Shown here: one piece after another, positions 8,996 to 63,438 of the stretch
Layout: every line of letters begins with the position of its first letter
Numbering within the stretch: position 1 is the first letter of the stretch
Source: Candidatus Nomurabacteria bacterium
Lineage (GTDB): Bacteria; Patescibacteriota; Minisyncoccia; Phycocordibacterales; UBA918
Reading direction: 5' to 3'
Assembly: GCA_020632035.1 (NCBI GenBank)
Contig: JACKGG010000001.1
Span: 221,483-285,482 of the forward strand
Length of the DNA: 64,000 bases
Program-made: the position numbers and the translations under genes
The notes under the pieces: generated by a model
What the model saw: only the letters and a program-made list of their open reading frames with translations
Databases searched by the model: none
What the model was told of the DNA's origin: nothing

Positions 8996-9454
8996 CTATT
9001 CTCCTATTTTCGAGGCTACAAGTCTCGATAGATTACTTAGGAAGGTTGCCACAGCAGATAGAGCCAGTAGCACAACAGGGAAAATTGCGTATGGGGTCAT
9101 TAAGTAGAAAAAGATAATTGTAGCGGTTGCCCATATACCAAAGCACCAAGCACAATCGAGTAAATCGGCCAGAGTCCGGCGGGGGCCAGTTTTAGGCTTC
9201 ACTAACTCAAAACCCCGACCCACCTTCTTAACATCCCAAAACTGCTCTCGGAAAAACTTAGTAATTAGGTCATAGACAAACAGCCTAGTCAGTCGCCAAG
9301 AAGCTAGTGTAATGATTACGTAGTCGACTAAGCTTAAGTCTACCAGCGGTATCCGAGCCTCAGTCTCAAGAATAATTGAGCCCATAACAACCAATATCAG
9401 AAAAAATATTGCAAAGATAAAATTCCAAAAGTACTGATCTGTAATACGAATCAT
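8996..9454 (-). CDS. DUF1360-like membrane protein
   Basis: Has a 'DLLDCAWCFGIWAT' CxxC motif inside a hydrophobic protein, typical of DUF1360. Confidence 0.45.
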   Translation of the reverse strand: MIRITDQYFWNFIFAIFFLILVVMGSIILETEARIPLVDLSLVDYVIITLASWRLTRLFVYDLITKFFREQFWDVKKVGRGFELVKPKTGPRRTLADLLDCAWCFGIWATATIIFFYLMTPYAIFPVVLLALSAVATFLSNLSRLVASKIGE

Positions 9455-9472
9455 AATATTCCCTGGTTCAAC

Positions 9473-9727
9473 TTATTGTACACCACTTCCAACTCCAACT
9501 ATTAAAATAAATAACAACACCCCAGCGATAACAGCGATAAAACTAAAAACGAAACGATAAAAGCTTTTGTTTAATGCATTTTCTTTTATTCTCCTCAACC
9601 TCGCTTTTGGATTCATATTAAATATTATAGCAGATGTAAAAAAGTCCGTCCTGAATTCCAGTATTTCAGACAGACTTTGGTCTATGTGGCTATCTAACTT
9701 TGAAGTAAAAACGTTGCACCAAAGCAA
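9473..9727 (-). CDS. Small hypothetical membrane protein
   Basis: 84 aa with a C-terminal TM helix. Confidence 0.3.
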   Translation of the reverse strand: MLWCNVFTSKLDSHIDQSLSEILEFRTDFFTSAIIFNMNPKARLRRIKENALNKSFYRFVFSFIAVIAGVLLFILIVGVGSGVQ

Positions 9728-10079
9728 ATACTAAAGTCGTTACAACCATAACTACACCCATCCCAATTGCCATTGATGTTCGTGTCGGCCAACCGTAATT
9801 CACCTCTACTGAACCCATTGCAATCAAAACCAATGAAATCGGCACGAACCAAATCATAAATTTATTTAGCCAGAGTTTGAAGATTTGGTTGTTGAAGAAT
9901 AGTAAGATTATAGAAGTTGTAATTATTGACAAAGACAAAAATTCTAGCGAATCCATAAAGGCTGCTCCGTAGGTACTCCTAAATTCATAAATTTTTGTTC
10001 CTACTTCAAATATAGACAACGAATACATGAACAGTAAAAAGAATAGTGAGATTCCAAAAAAGTTTTTTTTATTTTTCAT
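9690..10079 (-). CDS. Hypothetical multi-pass membrane protein
   Basis: 129 aa with 4 hydrophobic segments. Confidence 0.4.
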   Translation of the reverse strand: MKNKKNFFGISLFFLLFMYSLSIFEVGTKIYEFRSTYGAAFMDSLEFLSLSIITTSIILLFFNNQIFKLWLNKFMIWFVPISLVLIAMGSVEVNYGWPTRTSMAIGMGVVMVVTTLVFALVQRFYFKVR

Positions 10080-12573
10080 TTTGATTTAAATTATTTATAA
10101 TTACTTTAATTTGAGATAAATCTTCTTCTGATATTATACGTCTTTTTGCGTATCTATCTAAAACTCTATCGAGCGAATTAAGTATTCTTGTCTCAAGTCT
10201 ACTGAAAACTGGTTTCTTATCAGCCTCTCTAGAGAAGAACTCTGCCAACCTAACCTTAACCATCAATCCTTTCTCGAGGTTATGTTTAAGATTCAAGTTT
10301 TCAATAATCTCTCTTAGATCAGAATAACTATACTCAGGATCTGGTTCATTTATAACTTCACCGTTGAGAGTTTGCTCCAAATCTGTCTCTCCATCGCCAT
10401 CTAAATCCGTCTTTAATAAACTGTATACTCCATTTTCAATAGCAAACTCAGCTTTCATTGTTAGACTAGTTGTTGCATTAGCCAAAAGTGACTTTTGACT
10501 TTGTCGACCAGACTCATTTACCTCATCAATACTAAGTGAATAAACACCTTCTCCCGTGCCAGCCAGTTCTATGGACACATCAATCTCAGCTGGCAAAACT
10601 AAGTATTTACTATCTCCCAACTCAAAATACTGCGAACCAGAAATCTCAGTCTTAATTTCTCCGGCGACAACTCCAACCTGATTGCCTGCTTGGTCTTTAG
10701 CCAATATCGATACTGGTGAGTGTACGCCCACAATTGTGTATCTTGAATTAACCCTTGTGAACTCAGGAATGATGACTGAATCGGTAAAATAAGGGTATTT
10801 AATAACAGAATCTACAAATATTTGAACTGAATCGCTTTCGGTTAGGTTTTTATGAGTTCTGTCTATGGTTGCAAACTTTGAATTTTCTTCTTTCAAATCC
10901 ACCACCGCAGTAACTTTATCTCCTTTATATCCTTCCGCCGAGAACCCCATCACAGTCTGATCTCCTTCGTTGGTCATGATAGGAAAAGGTTTTAAATATG
11001 AATGTAAAATACAGGAGGGATTACTCTCTGCACAGCTAAACTCTCTATACCGGTAACCTTTAATTGTCGCCAAACCAGTACCAACTACTTCGTACACCTC
11101 TACTCCGTCTGGTGCATGCCAAGTATCCAAAATATTTTGCATATCTGTTGCCTCAGAAGATATTTGAGCATTAAGTATAATTGGTTCGCTTAGAACCATC
11201 GCTTCATCTCTATTACCTAAGCTGTTGAGGAGGAAATTTTGTAATCTTGAAGCTGAGTCTATATCTCCATAAGTAGATACAAGCTCCGCTAACTCTGAAC
11301 CATCAGTTGTTATAACTGGTTCAGAAATTTCATTGAAGTACCCTTGTGAAGGCAACAGAGTGTAAGCTCCTGGAAGATTTCTAGTGACTTGTCGTATAGT
11401 ATCTGCCGTCGCAACCAAACCAAAACCGAGACTCTGATCAAGACCATGCAACATTGAGCCAATCGCTTTTGGTGTACCAAGCTGTGGAGTTCCAATCATT
11501 ATAAATTTATCAATCTTCCCAGCTAAATAAGTTTCTCCATATTCATAAAGCAGAGCCTTGGCGACCAATCCCCCATTGGAGTGTCCAATCAGGGTAACCT
11601 TACCTGTATATGATTCTTCAGCTAGGGCAAGTACTTCATCTAACAAATGCTTAGTTTCATTTTCATAGATGACATCTTCCTTTGCAACATCAAAAACACT
11701 ATATCTCCAGTCATAAGCGAACGGTTCAAAGTCTCTAATGACTTTATCAGATTTAAGTTCTTCCATTTGGTCTAAAAATGTCTCGTATATATTGCCTCCA
11801 GAGGGAATTTCATCAATGACATCTCTTGTGTAGATATCATTTATGCTTGCACCAGTACTTGTCATAGTCAACTTATCTACATCAGCGTTTCTATTCGGCT
11901 CCCAGAGTTTGTTTTCTGTACCTAAGGCACCTTCTGTATATAAGCGGCTGGCTTGGATTCCTGGTAGGAACAAAACACTTGAGGCTCCGAGTGGCTCTGT
12001 GGTCTCGTACTCTATTGTGAATGAAACTGCTACCACTTCGAAATCATCTGGGAAAAATGCATAAGCAATGTTTGGTAAGAATATTTTTTTAATAAACTGT
12101 TTCCAAATTGGTTCGGACAAAGTCTGAAAAGGTGGCAGCTCATAGGTCAGTACCGCTACATACTCCCCTGCTTGGAGTGAGTCAAACAAATAATTTTCGT
12201 CTTCAGACAAATCGACTTGTCTAAAGTCTTCACCTTCATGGCGGAAGAGCTGGAAAGGGAAAGCAAAATTACCACTCTTATTAATCTCAAAAGAGCCGGC
12301 CACCGGCTCACCTTCGATTACCGAAATTACCGCACCCTCCGTAACACTTTGCTCAGCTATCGATAATTCATAAGTGAAGGGTTCCGGCGTATCGACATTG
12401 AAAGGATTGTCACAATCTTCGATTGGGGTACTCTTTTCAACAAAATCTTCTAAATCATAATCAAAATAACGAGTAATTATGTCACCACAACTAGCAAAAA
12501 TGGTTGGAGACCAAAACGATAAATAAATTAGTGCAAATAATGCGCTTAATAGACTTTGACTAAATATTTTCAT
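10069..12573 (-). CDS. Secreted alpha/beta-hydrolase (lipase/esterase-like, GHSNG nucleophile elbow) with large accessory domains
   Basis: Has a signal peptide and the motif 'GKVTLIGHSNGGLVAKAL' (a GxSxG serine-hydrolase motif, PGAP1/lipase-like). Confidence 0.6.
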   Translation of the reverse strand: MKIFSQSLLSALFALIYLSFWSPTIFASCGDIITRYFDYDLEDFVEKSTPIEDCDNPFNVDTPEPFTYELSIAEQSVTEGAVISVIEGEPVAGSFEINKSGNFAFPFQLFRHEGEDFRQVDLSEDENYLFDSLQAGEYVAVLTYELPPFQTLSEPIWKQFIKKIFLPNIAYAFFPDDFEVVAVSFTIEYETTEPLGASSVLFLPGIQASRLYTEGALGTENKLWEPNRNADVDKLTMTSTGASINDIYTRDVIDEIPSGGNIYETFLDQMEELKSDKVIRDFEPFAYDWRYSVFDVAKEDVIYENETKHLLDEVLALAEESYTGKVTLIGHSNGGLVAKALLYEYGETYLAGKIDKFIMIGTPQLGTPKAIGSMLHGLDQSLGFGLVATADTIRQVTRNLPGAYTLLPSQGYFNEISEPVITTDGSELAELVSTYGDIDSASRLQNFLLNSLGNRDEAMVLSEPIILNAQISSEATDMQNILDTWHAPDGVEVYEVVGTGLATIKGYRYREFSCAESNPSCILHSYLKPFPIMTNEGDQTVMGFSAEGYKGDKVTAVVDLKEENSKFATIDRTHKNLTESDSVQIFVDSVIKYPYFTDSVIIPEFTRVNSRYTIVGVHSPVSILAKDQAGNQVGVVAGEIKTEISGSQYFELGDSKYLVLPAEIDVSIELAGTGEGVYSLSIDEVNESGRQSQKSLLANATTSLTMKAEFAIENGVYSLLKTDLDGDGETDLEQTLNGEVINEPDPEYSYSDLREIIENLNLKHNLEKGLMVKVRLAEFFSREADKKPVFSRLETRILNSLDRVLDRYAKRRIISEEDLSQIKVIINNLNQNEK

Positions 12574-58885: not shown

Positions 58886-59106
58886 ACAAAAATCTTAATT
58901 AAAAAATAAATCTAGCTAAGTAAAAACCAATTCCTGCACCTAAAAAAAGCATGAAAGTGAGGGCTACCATTAAGAATGACTGGTCCATAGGTATATTATA
59001 TAGTATAAGAAACAAAAACATTTTTAGCTCTCGACTTTTTGCTAAAAAATAGGTATAAATGTACCCACGACGGCGGGATTTTCTCCGAAAATCCCGCCTG
59101 AAACAT

Positions 59107-59180
59107 GGCGGCTATAGTATAACGGTTAGTGCATCGGTTTGTGGTACCGATAGTTCGGGTTCGATTCCCGGTAGCCGCCC
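59107..59180 (+). tRNA. tRNA-His (anticodon GTG) with encoded G-1
   Basis: Folded by hand: acceptor GCGGCUA/UAGCCGC, D-stem GUAU/GUGC, anticodon stem UCGGU/ACCGA with loop UUGUGGU (GUG), T-arm UCGGG-UUCGAUU-CCCGG, and an extra 5' G opposite discriminator C73. CCA is not encoded. Confidence 0.85.
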
Positions 59181-59377
59181 AAAATTCAGAAACTCCTTCG
59201 GGAGTTTTTGTGTTTTGGGTGGCTAGAAAGTAAACTGCTTTGCTCGCGTCGGGAATCGAAGGCCACAGGTATGTTTTTATTTCCTTTCCTAGAAATAAAA
59301 ACAGCCGAGGCGGGGTCGAGAACACTTGGTAGATTTGGAGTTGTAGACGAACAATATGCTTAGTAACTCGTGACCGA
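59176..59377. repeat. 202-bp direct repeat, left copy (DR-L), starting inside the tRNA-His 3' end
   Basis: 100% identical to 62151..62352. Contains a terminator-like hairpin aaactcc-ttcg-ggagttt. It is followed at 59384-59397 by a second copy of the tRNA 3'-end motif cccggtagTcgccc. Confidence 0.9.
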
Positions 59378-59542
59378 TTCCTTCCCGGTAGTCGCCCATT
59401 TTAAGAAGCTCTATTTGAAAACGTATTTTAGGGTATTTTTTTAGTGTCTACCAGACCTAGTGGAACCAAAGCAATGTTCTATTGAAAAATAGAATTATTT
59501 GTGGCATTGTGCAACCAGTAGAAACCCTGTCTGGAGGCTTGT

Positions 59543-60103
59543 ATGCTGACAATCTTCATAAGTCCTCACAATCATCAAATTACTACCGCTGATGGTCAAA
59601 CTATGATTGTCAAAGGAATGTTTTTGAGAGAGGCTGGTGGTTTTGTTAGTCTGTTTGACTACCAGCCACCAAAAGACCTAAACGATGTGCAGATTGTATT
59701 GGTAAGGAAATACAGGAAAAACAAAATTCTGTCACTGCCTACTGATTTGAAACAAGCGATATTGTCTTTCTTGCGTGACCATCACGCTCAGATTGATATG
59801 TCATTTGACTGCTATGCGTTTGCTAACCTGGTGAAAGGGGTAGAAGTTCACAAAGTTCCTTACATGATTGCTTTCTGGGAACGAAAGAAAAAGCCATGGC
59901 TACCACAGCCTGGCTCGGTTGTCTTCTACGGCACAGGAGAAACTCAATTTCACCACGCTGCTATCTATCTTGGTGCTGGTCTGTATATTTCGGTATATGG
60001 TGCTGGCGGTAACCTGGAGATAGCAACTCACCGAAATATGATGCGAGACTATCGTGCAAAACACGCTTGTCTGGCAGAACCACTAGAGGAGCCACTCGTA
60101 TGA
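59543..60103 (+). CDS. NlpC/P60-like (papain-fold) cysteine peptidase/amidase
   Basis: Cys in 'FDCYAFANLV' and His in 'GSVVFYGTGETQFHHAAIYLGAG', ordered and spaced as in NlpC/P60. Confidence 0.5.
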   Translation: MLTIFISPHNHQITTADGQTMIVKGMFLREAGGFVSLFDYQPPKDLNDVQIVLVRKYRKNKILSLPTDLKQAILSFLRDHHAQIDMSFDCYAFANLVKGVEVHKVPYMIAFWERKKKPWLPQPGSVVFYGTGETQFHHAAIYLGAGLYISVYGAGGNLEIATHRNMMRDYRAKHACLAEPLEEPLV

Positions 60104-60684
60104 GCTTATTTGAAGGTTATAACCTTGAAAACTGTGTTAGCCCTGACGAGTGTGGCTACCGCTGGATGAAAGAAGGTCTACCTGACCAAGACTTCTTGCG
60201 GACACGTTGGAGGTTGCGACGCACTCTCCCAACGGCGCAAGAACATCTCCAGCGTCACGCTACCGACTTTCCTTGGGGTGAACTTTGTCTGCAACATGGA
60301 CAAGTCAGTAAACCGCCATCATATCGGACCAATATCACAATGGTTAAACGTGGAGGCTTCCTTGAACCTGGTCACTGCTTCCGCAACTCTCTGAGAGCAG
60401 TGCAACGCTGGAAGGAAAAACCTCCTGAGTGGGCTGAAGGTAAGCTGATTACGTATGTTAAAGGTCTGGCCCTTGACCCTACAGGTATCTTTCTTCACGG
60501 ATGGATTGACGTTGACGGACAAGCGGTTGACCTGACGTTCATGCGTGCACACATGACCACCTACTTCGGTGTTCGGTTTGAACCTGATTGGGCAATTGAA
60601 ACTTGCAGGCAAATCAACAAATACGGCATCTTCCATACTTGGGAGAAAAGCCAACCATTGCTTGAAGAAAAACTGGCAGCTTAG
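60101..60684 (+). CDS. Hypothetical protein (translationally coupled to the upstream NlpC/P60 gene)
   Basis: The start ATG overlaps the upstream stop (gtATGAgc). 194 aa, Trp/Arg-rich, no recognisable motif. The ORF track's longer version (from 60067) overlaps the upstream gene by 37 nt. Confidence 0.4.
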
Positions 60685-60732
60685 CTGTCTTTACCACCCA
60701 TCCGTGCAAACGGGAGGGTGGCTTTTTCTTTT

Positions 60733-60850
60733 CCCTATCGACCCAGTGGAACCACTTTCTTCCCTCTCAACTGAAACAAACCCTTGCGTCGCTTAACCAA
60801 TCAAGACAAAGCTCTTCCAATTGGTTCCACCCCAGGGTTGGTAGCCGCCC
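60733..60850. repeat. Cassette-boundary repeat A (about 118 bp), with inverted ends agtggaacca ... tggttccacc, ending in a tRNA-3'-like ggtagccgccca
   Basis: About 85% identical to repeat B at 62050..62156. The opener motif tagtggaacca also occurs at 59457. Confidence 0.7.
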
Positions 60851-60928
60851 AAAGTATAGACAAATATACTTTTTGTTGTATTATTATATCTAGCAACCCG
60901 TACATCTACTTAAACAAGGAGGTGTCTA

Positions 60929-61504
60929 ATGCAGACGCTTGTAATTATCACTGGCACCTCAGGTGCTGGTAAGACACTTCAACTTGAGCTGTTGGAACAA
61001 CATTATGGACAAGGGCGAGTACTGACTATTGCTACTCGTGCGAAAAGAAATGGTGAGGCTGGCAATGCCTACCACTTTGTCAGCGATGAACAACTTTCAG
61101 AAATGGAATCGCGCAACGAAACCATTTGGGTTATTGGTCGATATGGCAGTCGTTATTCCATCACGGAGCAAGCGATTCGAGAACCTTTACGAAAAAATAA
61201 TGGTCTGGCGTTTGTGGCAATCACGCCCGATTACCATGCCTTCTTGGCTCAATGGTGTGAGAGACACAATATCTCACCAATCAACATCCACCTGATTGCT
61301 CCTGGTCCTGATGAACAAAGACGGCGCCTGCAAGCACGTGACGGTAGCTTCAGCCTCGAACGTGTGGAAGCAAACACCAAATTCGAAACTGATGCTCAGA
61401 AGGCAGCAGAAATTGTCACGCTTCACTTCATCGAGCAGGCCCAACCAGAAAAGATGTTCGCCAAGCTGTGTGAATTGATAGACTCCGCCCGCACCCCGAG
61501 CTAA
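60929..61504 (+). CDS. Guanylate-kinase-family P-loop kinase (Gmk/PhnN-like)
   Basis: 'VIITGTSGAGKTL' P-loop and '..NAYHFVSDEQ..' as in the Gmk family. Confidence 0.55.
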   Translation: MQTLVIITGTSGAGKTLQLELLEQHYGQGRVLTIATRAKRNGEAGNAYHFVSDEQLSEMESRNETIWVIGRYGSRYSITEQAIREPLRKNNGLAFVAITPDYHAFLAQWCERHNISPINIHLIAPGPDEQRRRLQARDGSFSLERVEANTKFETDAQKAAEIVTLHFIEQAQPEKMFAKLCELIDSARTPS

Positions 61505-61556
61505 GGAAAACGCCCTGCGTTCCCTGCTAGCTCGGGGCGTTTTTTATTTCATAATT

Positions 61557-61991
61557 ATGAGTACAATAATGACTATGACAGATATACAAATACCACGAGT
61601 TGGCGTTGGTCTCATTATCCGCCGAGATAATAAAATTCTACTCGGTAAACGAATGAATACCCATGGTGCCGAAACCTGGAGCCCGCCAGGAGGTCACCTA
61701 GAGTTCATGGAGACAATTGAAGACTGTGCAAAACGTGAAGCTATGGAAGAGACGGGTTGTGTCGTTACTAATATTCAACCACCAGTTTTTACCGAAGAAT
61801 TTTATCCCGAGCTAGACAAACACTACATAAACTTAATGCTTACTGCAGACTGGTTAAGTAACGAACCTACAGTATTAGAACCTCACAAATGCGAGAGTTG
61901 GGAATGGTTTGCATGGGATGAGTTACCATCTCCGCTTTTTCTTCCACTCCAAAATCACATCAATCAAGGATATACTCCTTTTCCTAAATAA
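61557..61991 (+). CDS. NUDIX hydrolase
   Basis: Nudix box 'GGHLEFMETIEDCAKREAMEETGCVV' (GX5EX7REUXEEXGU). Confidence 0.85.
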   Translation: MSTIMTMTDIQIPRVGVGLIIRRDNKILLGKRMNTHGAETWSPPGGHLEFMETIEDCAKREAMEETGCVVTNIQPPVFTEEFYPELDKHYINLMLTADWLSNEPTVLEPHKCESWEWFAWDELPSPLFLPLQNHINQGYTPFPK

Positions 61992-62049
61992 ATCATGTAA
62001 CTTAGCAAAATACTCATCATTTACGCACGGGTATCTGAGCCTACCGAAC

Positions 62050-62156
62050 TAGTGGAACCACTTTCTTCCCTATCACCAAAACAAACCCTTGCGTCGCTTA
62101 ACCAAGTAAGACACAGCTCTTCAAGTTGGTTCCACCCGAGGGTCGGTAGTCGCCCA
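62050..62156. repeat. Cassette-boundary repeat B (partner of 60733..60850), ending in ggtagtcgccca and abutting DR-R
   Basis: Inspection shows 'ctagtggaaccactttcttccct...ttggttccacccgagggtcggtagtcgccca'. Confidence 0.7.
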
Positions 62157-62352
62157 AAATTCAGAAACTCCTTCGGGAGTTTTTGTGTTTTGGGTGGCTA
62201 GAAAGTAAACTGCTTTGCTCGCGTCGGGAATCGAAGGCCACAGGTATGTTTTTATTTCCTTTCCTAGAAATAAAAACAGCCGAGGCGGGGTCGAGAACAC
62301 TTGGTAGATTTGGAGTTGTAGACGAACAATATGCTTAGTAACTCGTGACCGA
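62151..62352. repeat. 202-bp direct repeat, right copy (DR-R)
   Basis: Identical to 59176..59377. It is followed at 62357-62370 by an exact cccggtagccgccc tRNA-3' motif. Confidence 0.9.
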
Positions 62353-62520
62353 ACTTCCCGGTAGCCGCCCTAAAGCTTTTCGCAACCTAAACTTATCCCC
62401 GTGGTACTACGTCTAAAAGATACCTATTGCCTATGGCAAGATTATTTAACACACTTTCCCAAACAAAATCGTTATACACTCGGTAACAGAATTGCTTTTT
62501 ATGGTGCTTTATAAAAAGCT

Positions 62521-63438
62521 CTAGGAACCTTTTTTAGAAAACACACTGTTGACTGGAGTTTTCAGCTGTACTGTTCCTGATTCGTCCGGCAATGGTAGGT
62601 TACCTCCGCGCATATTTACCTGAATTGAAGGAATGATCAACTTTGGCATGCCAAGTTGAGCATCTCGTTCTTCTCTCATTTTTTTGAATCGGTCTTTTTC
62701 GACACCTTCCTTTATATGTATGTTTTGCTTCTTTTGTTCACCAATGGTCGTTTCCCAAATATACTCAGTCCTCCCTTCTGGCAAATAGTCATGGCACATA
62801 AACATCCTCATACTTTCCGGCAAAGCGAAGATTTTTTGGGTTGATTCGTACATTATTTCAGCATTACCACCCGGGAAGTCACATCTAGCAGTACCAAAGT
62901 CTGGCATAAACATAGTATCTCCAGCAAAAACAGCGTCTCCTATTACATAGACCATGTCCGCTGGTGTGTGACCTGGAGTGTGAATTACTTTAGCTGGTAT
63001 CTCTCCCAAGAAAAAAGTGTCACCATCGTTCCATAATTGGTCAAACTGACTACCGTCTCGCTGAAACTCTGTTCCTTCATTAAAAACTTTTCCAAAAATA
63101 TTCTGTACATCGACAATATACTTTCCAATTGCCATGGTTCCGCCCAGTTTCTCCTTCAGGTAAGGGGCGGCAGAAAGGTGGTCAGCATGTACGTGGGTCT
63201 CTAATATCCATTCCACCTTGTATCCTTTCCCTGTTACAAACTCAATTATCGCATCAGCGTTTTCAAAGAAAAGTGTGGCTCCGTTTGGCTCATAATCCAT
63301 AACACTGTCTATAACGGCGCACTGTTTACTATTAGGGTCTGCCACCACATAACTTATCGTATTGGTTCGTTCATCAAAGAAACCTTGGACCTCCGGCTTA
63401 TGGTTTAGAAATTTTGAGTAGTCTATATTATTTTCCAT
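62521..63438 (-). CDS. Metallo-beta-lactamase-fold hydrolase (glyoxalase II / ETHE1-like)
   Basis: 'ETHVHADHLS' (HxHxDH), '..IHTPGHTPADMVY' and '..AGDTMF' metal-ligand motifs. Confidence 0.75.
   Translation of the reverse strand: MENNIDYSKFLNHKPEVQGFFDERTNTISYVVADPNSKQCAVIDSVMDYEPNGATLFFENADAIIEFVTGKGYKVEWILETHVHADHLSAAPYLKEKLGGTMAIGKYIVDVQNIFGKVFNEGTEFQRDGSQFDQLWNDGDTFFLGEIPAKVIHTPGHTPADMVYVIGDAVFAGDTMFMPDFGTARCDFPGGNAEIMYESTQKIFALPESMRMFMCHDYLPEGRTEYIWETTIGEQKKQNIHIKEGVEKDRFKKMREERDAQLGMPKLIIPSIQVNMRGGNLPLPDESGTVQLKTPVNSVFSKKGS

Follow-up and report, generated by a model that had tools for sequence, protein, structure and literature searches.

Sedentary chromosomal integrons have homogeneous attC sites of ~120 bp, the Vibrio cholerae repeats being an example. 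Cis-mobilizable elements (CIMEs) undergo accretion with integrative conjugative elements in Streptococcus, and Xer-dependent modules are known as IMEX at dif and as the pdif modules of Acinetobacter plasmids. The ssrA-linked tandem islands of Dehalococcoides are reportedly made up of tandem elements that target the tmRNA gene. In Prochlorococcus, tycheposon islands consist of tandem tRNA-targeting integrative elements, stacked with partial tRNAs and degenerate remnants (bioRxiv 10.1101/2020.12.28.424599). The locus described here is an array of small gene cassettes downstream of tRNA-His in a 64,000 nt stretch of DNA from Candidatus Nomurabacteria (host name as in NCBI). This whole stretch is referred to as the window, and coordinates given without a contig label (L followed by a number) are positions within it.

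The best reading of the region is that it is the tRNA-proximal part of a hypervariable small-cassette array in a clade of the Candidate Phyla Radiation (CPR)/Patescibacteria. It behaves functionally like an integron and nevertheless falls outside the integrons on molecular grounds, the systems closest in kind being the tandem islands that target tRNA or tmRNA genes, such as the tycheposons, and CIME-type elements, which have no integrase of their own. The genomes of CPR bacteria are very small and contain few recognized mobile elements, and their acquisition of accessory and defence genes is poorly understood.

Organization of the array

The island is divided by an 11 nt sequence, GGTAGYCGCCC, designated O, which is present five times in the window, where 0.45 copies would be expected by chance, and always within 59170-62370. 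One copy is the genuine 3' end of tRNA-His. Cuts made after the CGCCC of each copy partition the island, in order, into tRNA-His, X, unit 1, unit 2, a second X, and the chromosomal flank (Table 1), with MscL and tRNA-His forming its fixed end. Units 1 and 2 each contain two genes followed by a repeat of ~120 nt, R1 and R2 respectively.

R1 and R2 are 88% identical in alignment (87.5% over 120 nt by BLAST, E = 2e-33). Each has the inverted arms GTGGAACCA and TGGTTCCAC, ~66 nt apart, and each terminates in the last bases of tRNA-His. The GTGGAACCA arm occurs six times in the window, five of these being in the island, against 0.35 copies expected by chance. This agrees with the original prediction, made from the letters of the window, of two 2-gene units anchored on a tRNA, each closed by an imperfect repeat with inverted termini and a tRNA-3'-like end. 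Copies of a motif were also thought to open each unit, which is correct for the copy at 59460, at the 5' end of unit 1, but not for those placed at 60736 (in fact near 60746) and 62052, each of which is the 5' arm of a closing repeat, R1 in unit 1 and R2 in unit 2.

Two features had been overlooked. A perfect 209 nt direct repeat brackets the island (59169-59377 and 62144-62352, 100% identity, spacing 2975), and there is a third, non-coding unit, X, most of which, together with O, makes up this repeat. X contains, in order, a terminator hairpin (59187-59210 in copy 1), an inverted tRNA-His 3' end split by a hairpin of ~24 nt (TGGGYGRCTA ... CGGGAATCGAA; in copy 1, TGGGTGGCTA near 59215-59225 and CGGGAATCGAA at 59250-59260), a variable middle, and a direct 21 nt copy of the tRNA 3' end, which in copy 1 finishes in the O at 59387-59397. 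Candidates for the nature of X are a native tRNA trailer, an empty cassette, or a small RNA. The 5' and 3' parts of X could form a long stem, and X-like units are seen in relatives (L044 191-386, L069 337-532).

A family of R repeats in related arrays

The R repeat starts with CCCTACCGACCCAGTGGAACCA and finishes with TGGTTCCACCCGAGG(G)TC...AGYCGCCC, and has GTGGAACC arms. A pattern of its invariant blocks has matches in 52 metagenome contigs and in 4 contigs of metagenome-assembled genomes (MAGs) labelled Saccharibacteria. In the 72 copies from the pattern scan the inter-arm length is 83-86 nt, and nearly all have CCCTACCGRCCYA upstream and CCGAGG(G)TC(GGT or CAGG)AGYCGCCC downstream. A profile search extends the family to 108 copies in 58 related CPR contigs, co-oriented within every contig, with 2-6 copies in each of 30 loci and up to 6 copies in 11.5 kb. 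All seven of the contigs that bear tRNA-His have R on its downstream side, at distances of up to ~10 kb and with the orientation of the tRNA, and their left flank matches that of the window (RNR genes, MscL, tRNA-His). The host of the array linked to the hypothetical 194 amino acid (aa) protein of unit 1 (hyp194) is labelled Candidatus Nomurabacteria by NCBI.

Between contigs, R is 84-90% identical, compared with 70-77% for the RNR and MscL genes. In the whole of the 64 kb window nhmmer finds R1 and R2 only, and R is therefore not a dispersed intergenic repeat, a possibility that would have spoken against the cassette organization originally proposed.

There are two variants of the R 3' end, GGTCGGTAG and GGTCCAGGAG. 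Within a contig, the variant does not follow the T-stem of tRNA-His, and a link between the two was rejected. R was also rejected as a coding sequence; some copies have a stop in the best frame (GCC TGA CTT in L063), and the open reading frames (ORFs) that span R are inconsistent from locus to locus.

Two R-specific patterns had 0 matches on viral contigs, and the tRNA-His 3' end pattern had 4 chance matches there, in high-GC coding DNA without an integrase. An arm-only pattern, with 18 specified bases, gave 29 viral loci, which is near a rough chance estimate, and none of these resembles the R interior, those with multiple copies (L018 and similar) being virophage palindromes. Beyond chance matches, neither R nor the tRNA-His 3' end is present in viral contigs. 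Contigs L018, L002/L008, L019/L022, and L028 (IMG/VR) are virophage contigs with a Sputnik-type major capsid protein, which carry several copies of a ~120 nt palindrome, GGTGGATAGAGTGGAACCATTTTT...AAAAAATGGTTCCACTCTATCCACC, that has the GTGGAACCA arms in common with R by coincidence.

Cassette boundaries and reshuffling

At 104 distinct junctions, identity stops exactly after CGCCC, the O core across the family being [T/G]AGYCGCCC. The classes of sequence that start to the right of the junction recur and combine freely with whatever is on the left, be it tRNA-His, the end of an X-type unit, or one or the other variant of R. Five different cassette starts, in different contigs, abut tRNA-His at one and the same nucleotide. 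The tRNA sequence in common at these joins is only 9-13 nt, which is too short for RecA; 9-13 nt is the length of tRNA identity found in R-type ends, and ~21 nt that in X-type ends.

Unit 2 (60851-62155) is 91.5% identical over its whole length to L062 82-1391. In the window it is preceded by R1 and followed by X, while in L062 tRNA-His lies directly before it and a cassette with a class A left end comes after it. Two more cassettes have differing neighbours and exact boundaries, making three in all. In L044/L045 the order is R, X-like unit, O, GGACT gene, hyp194 homologue (79% identical), R, flank; this module is a homologue of unit 1 in which the GGACT gene replaces the NlpC/P60-like gene, the repeats being alike and the content not. 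Gene content between R copies varies in this way from contig to contig, and the arrays at tRNA-His with different content between the same repeats, for which a survey had been proposed, do therefore exist in relatives.

Many cassettes have a conserved left end of ~65 nt, in classes A and B, with CCTACYG...GTGGAAC or GTTCGAAC at +40 to +65 relative to the junction. In at least 7 contigs the class A left end follows an O site, whether this belongs to R-O, to X-O, or to another O. There are 46 distinct O-to-O units, of 163-7,168 nt (median 1.35 kb), among which 12 distinct units are non-coding and of the X type (163-217 nt). Of the ORFs of at least 70 aa in the O-to-O units, 58 are on the strand of the array and 34 run against it.

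In the acceptor stem of the tRNA-His at L067 3759-3831 there is a G4-U69 wobble (5' GCGGCTA, 3' TAGTCGC); the 5' half of this tRNA is like that of the window, and its 3' end is like the common cassette O. By its sequence, this tRNA hints that crossovers can replace the tRNA-His end. The C/T polymorphism in O mostly goes with the upstream R variant, which speaks against such replacement.

A circular or tandem form of the island

The exact 194 aa protein of unit 1 is encoded on six metagenome contigs from five samples. Contig L031 (ENA ERZ27309186, k141_627080; MEGAHIT, 3,116 nt) has a terminal overlap of 141 nt, the only one among the fetched loci, and its 2,975 nt core is an exact rotation of window positions 59378-62352, with 0 mismatches. 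The length of 2,975 nt is that of X, unit 1, and unit 2 together (217 + 1453 + 1305) and equals the spacing of the 209 nt repeat. In L031 R2-X is joined to unit 1, which means that X, unit 1, and unit 2 exist together as a circle or tandem repeat. Contig L030, from a different sample, reads R2-X-flank, as does the window.

Recombination between O sites and homologous recombination between X copies yield the same product and therefore cannot be separated by L031. The short-read assembly graph is likewise equal for the integrated state and for a circle plus an empty site, so that the integrated state rests on the repeat resolution of the assemblers. In the sample that gave L031, this organism's chromosomal contigs are only 539-2,453 nt long, while the 2,975 nt island was assembled closed or in tandem; by its assembly, the island element may be at a higher copy number than the chromosome.

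Search for a recombinase

Probe sequences for XerD (tyrosine recombinase) and Hin (serine recombinase), which a very divergent or novel enzyme would escape, were used with phmmer (E <= 1) alongside a regular expression for catalytic motifs, and detected no recombinase, IntI-like or other, in the 64 kb window or the 58 related loci (343 kb). None of the four cargo genes in the window is a recombinase, and the 25 families matched most often in a Pfam search with 150 cluster representatives include no integrase. No autonomous partner element that could supply an integrase is seen in the related loci.

Proposed mechanism

On balance, these are probably integrase-less cassettes for which a recombinase encoded elsewhere carries out site-specific recombination at the tRNA-His 3' end. 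A cassette starts directly behind one O, the copy of the tRNA end, and runs to the end of the next, and most close with R directly 5' of O; in the window, X, unit 1, and unit 2 are units of this kind. Since the left-end motif resembles the 5' arm of R, the R, O, and left end of a circularized cassette would form one composite site of ~190 nt, a complex site comparable to attP, for which the tRNA end or any bare O would be the simple partner, comparable to attB or attI. A site-specific recombinase supplied in trans would recombine the O sites, so that circles enter the array at the tRNA end or at any of its O copies, and the same enzyme would excise one or several adjacent cassettes as a circle. 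R would serve as the arm to which the recombinase or an accessory protein binds. Serial site-specific insertions into a growing array had been named in the original prediction as the alternative to integron cassettes, and it is this alternative that fits best.

Several points weigh against site-specific movement. R copies of ~120 nt and ~90% identity could themselves drive homologous exchange of cassettes, and RecA recombination between the 209 nt repeats, or tandem duplication, could equally give the L031 circle. The equivalence of the integrated and circle-plus-empty-site states in the assembly graph counts here also. The central actor is missing, as no recombinase was detected with the XerD and Hin probes. 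Several cassette starts, those of unit 2 and X among them, are without a motif like the R arm, and independent cases of one cassette with different neighbours are only a few. Most contigs with R are from a small range of saline or aquatic metagenomes, and the clade that they stand for may be narrow.

More tentatively, a clade of the CPR/Patescibacteria may possess a gene-capture platform that is analogous to the integron and made of other parts. In it, insertion would be fixed at the 3' end of the only tRNA-His gene, R-O with a left end of ~65 nt would be the site at which cassettes recombine, and small circles with defence or accessory genes would be moved into and out of the arrays by a recombinase encoded elsewhere, possibly one of a novel type or a host enzyme that was co-opted. 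If true, a dense, tRNA-anchored, integrase-less array whose cassettes have a single conserved recombination arm in common would concentrate gene flux in CPR at a compact hotspot, and would be a second, independently built answer to the problem that integrons solve. The R-O sequence offers a handle for harvesting cassettes from metagenomes and for finding the cognate recombinase via co-occurrence.

Decayed islands as the main rival

The main rival to movement by a recombinase in trans is that the array is a graveyard of decayed remnants, in which islands or prophages carrying an integrase were serially integrated at tRNA-His, R is the leftover att arm of a single family of elements, and reshuffling is by homologous recombination via R and the 209 nt repeats. 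Stacked integrations with partial tRNAs and degenerate remnants are known, for instance in the tycheposon islands, and both the perfect 209 nt repeat and the ~90% identical R copies would be adequate substrates for RecA. The lack of a detected integrase in the window and related loci would be expected of such remnants, but the 343 kb of arrays contain no integrase fragments either. Conservation of R exceeds that of the housekeeping genes beside it, and the distance between its arms is kept at 83-86 nt, both of which are unexpected for decaying scars. Nor would decay account for the five different cassettes that join the tRNA at the same nucleotide with so little sequence in common, or for the fact that cassettes at O sites without R keep the same exact boundary. 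Such an origin of the array is therefore considered unlikely.

Conservation and folding of R

As RNA, the top strand of R folds somewhat better than shuffled sequences (z about -2.6; -2.7 for R1 and -2.5 for R2), which is a modest effect, and as DNA the z values are -0.2 to -1.5. The stem is only 9-10 bp and encloses an interior of ~66 nt, and the outer stem (CTACCGACC / GGTCGGTAG) is missing from the half of the family with GGTCCAGGAG. In 69 distinct copies there are no compensatory changes on either strand, and the pair statistics equal those of shuffles. The consensus structure has an energy of -3.3 kcal/mol on the top strand and -15.7 kcal/mol on the bottom strand, where one-sided substitutions appear to be mostly compatible with wobble (G-U) pairing, which is only a hint. 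An Rfam scan of 58900-62600 has tRNA-His as its only credible match and none for R; two other matches at E <= 1 fall well short of the respective gathering scores and lie outside both R and X. As judged from the aligned copies, R is conserved in sequence, not in structure. The foldable repeats of the original prediction are thus real as regards their inverted arms, but the stem is short, the DNA folds little better than shuffles, and covariation is absent.

R might be a functional RNA or an element of transcription or processing, such as a 3' untranslated region, a tRNA-like processing signal, or a small RNA, rather than a recombination site. It lies directly after terminator-like hairpins and ends in a mimic of the acceptor strand, which, with the top-strand folding, the bottom-strand consensus, and the G-U-compatible changes, would be in keeping with such a role. 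The absence of an Rfam match and of compensatory changes argues against this, as do the outer stem missing from half the family and the many cassette genes on the opposite strand. This would also leave the CGCCC breakpoints, the link to tRNA-His, and the circle unexplained, and the RNA explanation is accordingly improbable.

RAYT-like transposases

A RAYT-like Y1 transposase (224 aa; Pfam Y1_Tnp, E = 5e-20; NCBIfam REP_Tyr_transpos, 69.7 bits) is encoded by 10 genes in 8 arrays (L049, L054, L072, L073, L076, L085, L091, and L094, for example at L094 7484-8158 on the + strand). These genes are always antisense to R, at times only 44 nt away, and are flanked by a REP-like palindrome of their own, AAATGGTGGCTGACCCCATTT, sometimes in 2-3 tandem copies. 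There is no such gene in the window, and most arrays are without one. The RAYT-like transposase was rejected as the mobilizer of the cassettes because it is flanked by its own REP-like repeats and not by R.

The wider possibility that an HUH Y1 transposase (IS200/IS605- or RAYT-like) moves the cassettes as single-stranded DNA, recognizing the R hairpin and cleaving 3' of O, could draw on the proximity of these antisense genes to R and on the one-sided substitutions that favour pairing of the bottom strand. The genes having palindromes of their own and being absent from the window and most arrays, and there being no matching hairpin at the cassette left ends, such movement is very improbable. 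A 9 bp stem closing a 66 nt loop is also unlike the end hairpins known from IS200/IS605.

Comparison with integrons

The array resembles a sedentary integron in having one co-oriented, closely similar, imperfect-palindromic repeat of ~120 nt at the 3' end of each small cassette, an insertion point fixed at one end, and the same cassette at different array positions. The circular or tandem contig, which equals three O-to-O units, recalls the excisable circular cassettes of integrons, and the cassettes, of 0.6-3 kb, carry toxin-antitoxin, GNAT, and NUDIX genes and genes of unknown function, as in sedentary integrons. These features would be explained by a canonical integron array, or by a CALIN (a cluster of attC sites lacking an integron integrase), that is served by a distant IntI.

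The array is, however, anchored on the 3' end of tRNA-His, and neither intI nor an attI/Pc platform was found beside it in the window and the 58 loci with the same probes, which would miss very divergent enzymes. R has no R''/R' cores (RYYYAAC/GTTRRRY), and the boundary is not inside a GTT triplet; it follows CGCCC, 20-22 nt past the inner stem. R is not a near-full-length hairpin, and the long bottom-strand hairpin that attC sites conserve over sequence is not seen; rather, the hairpin is weak, without covariation. Integron cassettes are mostly promoterless, with ORFs on the array strand, whereas here genes lie on both strands, non-coding X units are present, and there are some promoter-like sites, including that at 60857-60884. 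The likening of the repeats to attC, and with it the integron reading, therefore finds no support, and a canonical integron or CALIN is hardly tenable.

Equally hard to credit is an assembly artefact in which the duplicated X and the unit order come from a mis-resolved MAG repeat, which could be argued from a perfect 209 nt repeat longer than the k-mer, several contigs that break inside X, and the equal assembly graphs, since six independent contigs from five samples give R1, R2, the O copies, and the two cassettes in identical form, L030 reads R2-X-flank, and the family pattern occurs in 58 other contigs that are independent of the assembly of the window.

Comparison with tRNA-linked islands, CIMEs, and Xer modules

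Insertion at the 3' end of a tRNA, with a displaced direct-repeat fragment, is seen in the window and in 7 related contigs. The tycheposon and ssrA islands are similar in occurring in streamlined genomes, in being seeded at the 3' end of a tRNA or tmRNA with newer insertions pushing older ones outward, in having units bounded by partial tRNA copies, and in their circular and tandem junction forms. Those elements encode an integrase themselves, in most cases along with modules for replication or packaging, and measure several kb or more, whereas the array units are of 0.2-3 kb and without a detected recombinase. Unlike those islands, the array has a conserved 120 nt arm common to unrelated cassettes, the identity with the tRNA itself being limited to the short stretches given above.

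The units resemble CIMEs in being flanked by att-like sites, in lacking recombination and transfer genes, in presumably being moved in trans, and in becoming tandem through integration into resident att sites. CIMEs derive from, and adjoin, a cognate integrative conjugative element of known integrase, whereas for the array, which is much denser, no such partner was found in the related loci.

IMEX and pdif modules also have cargo without a recombinase, short recombination sites, and arrays, and they exploit the host tyrosine recombinase. O does not resemble a 28 bp dif site, it and its flanks having no 11-6-11 dyad on inspection, and cumulative GC skew drops steadily across the locus with no switch. 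An Xer/dif mechanism is therefore unlikely. The partner of O is, moreover, a 120 nt arm, unlike the second dif-like site of those modules.

Features and cargo of the arrays

The features of the island are collected in Table 1.

Table 1. Positions of the elements of the tRNA-His array in the window
Feature	Position	Strand	Remarks
tRNA-His (GTG), anchor	59108..59180	+	ARAGORN; Rfam tRNA 59.1 bits; 73 nt
First O site, GGTAGCCGCCC	59170-59180	+	Last 11 nt of tRNA-His; attB/attI-like
X copy 1	59181..59397	+	Non-coding mini-cassette, 217 nt
Unit 1 cassette	59398..60850	+	1,453 nt; left end, two genes, terminator-like hairpin, R1 + O
Unit 1 left end (LE), class A	59398..59470	+	Begins ATTTTAAGAAGCT; contains CTACCAGACCTAGTGGAACCA at 59448-59468
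NlpC/P60-like gene (unit 1)	59543-60103		Pfam
Hypothetical 194 aa gene, hyp194 (unit 1)	60100-60684
Terminator-like hairpin (unit 1)	~60686-60722		5' of R1
R1 repeat	60731..60851	+	Arms GTGGAACCA 60746-60754, TGGTTCCAC 60822-60830; O GGTAGCCGCCC 60840-60850; nhmmer E = 6e-37
Unit 2 cassette	60851..62155	+	1,305 nt; two genes, then R2 + O
Promoter-like site, start of unit 2	60857-60884		10/12 match; promoter and terminator scan
Guanylate-kinase-like gene (unit 2)	60929-61504		Pfam
Terminator between kinase and NUDIX genes (unit 2)	61522-61537		Promoter and terminator scan
NUDIX gene (unit 2)	61557-61991		Pfam
R2 repeat	62036..62156	+	Arms 62052-62060, 62127-62135; O GGTAGTCGCCC 62145-62155; nhmmer E = 2e-35
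X copy 2	62156..62370	+	215 nt; ends in last O GGTAGCCGCCC (62360-62370)
Chromosomal flank	from 62371	-	MBL-fold and DUF2202 genes

The start of hyp194 overlaps the end of the NlpC/P60-like gene (ATGA at 60100-60103), an arrangement for translational coupling. The hyp194 family is rare, with 13 clusters, and its predicted model (pLDDT 90, pTM 0.85) has no significant match in the PDB. With its invariant Cys93, His133, and Asp137, the protein may be a papain- or transglutaminase-like hydrolase.

Toxin-antitoxin pairs (RelB/YafQ, Phd/PemK), NUDIX proteins (6 clusters), and AAA_33 kinases (5 clusters) are carried in the arrays, along with GNAT acetyltransferases, Zeta toxin, Abi_2, reverse transcriptases, a type ISP restriction enzyme, ASCH, and a nucleoside hydrolase, which is typical accessory or defence content. 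A protein of 400-444 aa, without a Pfam or NCBIfam match and with an Arg-rich C-terminus (RPHWRRAHWRRPRG), is present as a cassette beside the nucleoside hydrolase in 5 arrays (for example L058 1692-2999 and L092 9627-10961, - strand).

In L036, from a related genome, a homologue of unit 1 (9548-10628), consisting of an NlpC/P60 remnant plus hyp197, is found without any R. This module is directly after a tRNA-like 3' end, before which there is a match to a group I intron (Rfam 49.2 bits, gathering score 50), and the feature at 9113-9498, a short way upstream of the module, is probably an intron-containing tRNA gene. As it follows another tRNA-like end, the module therefore also adjoins a different tRNA.

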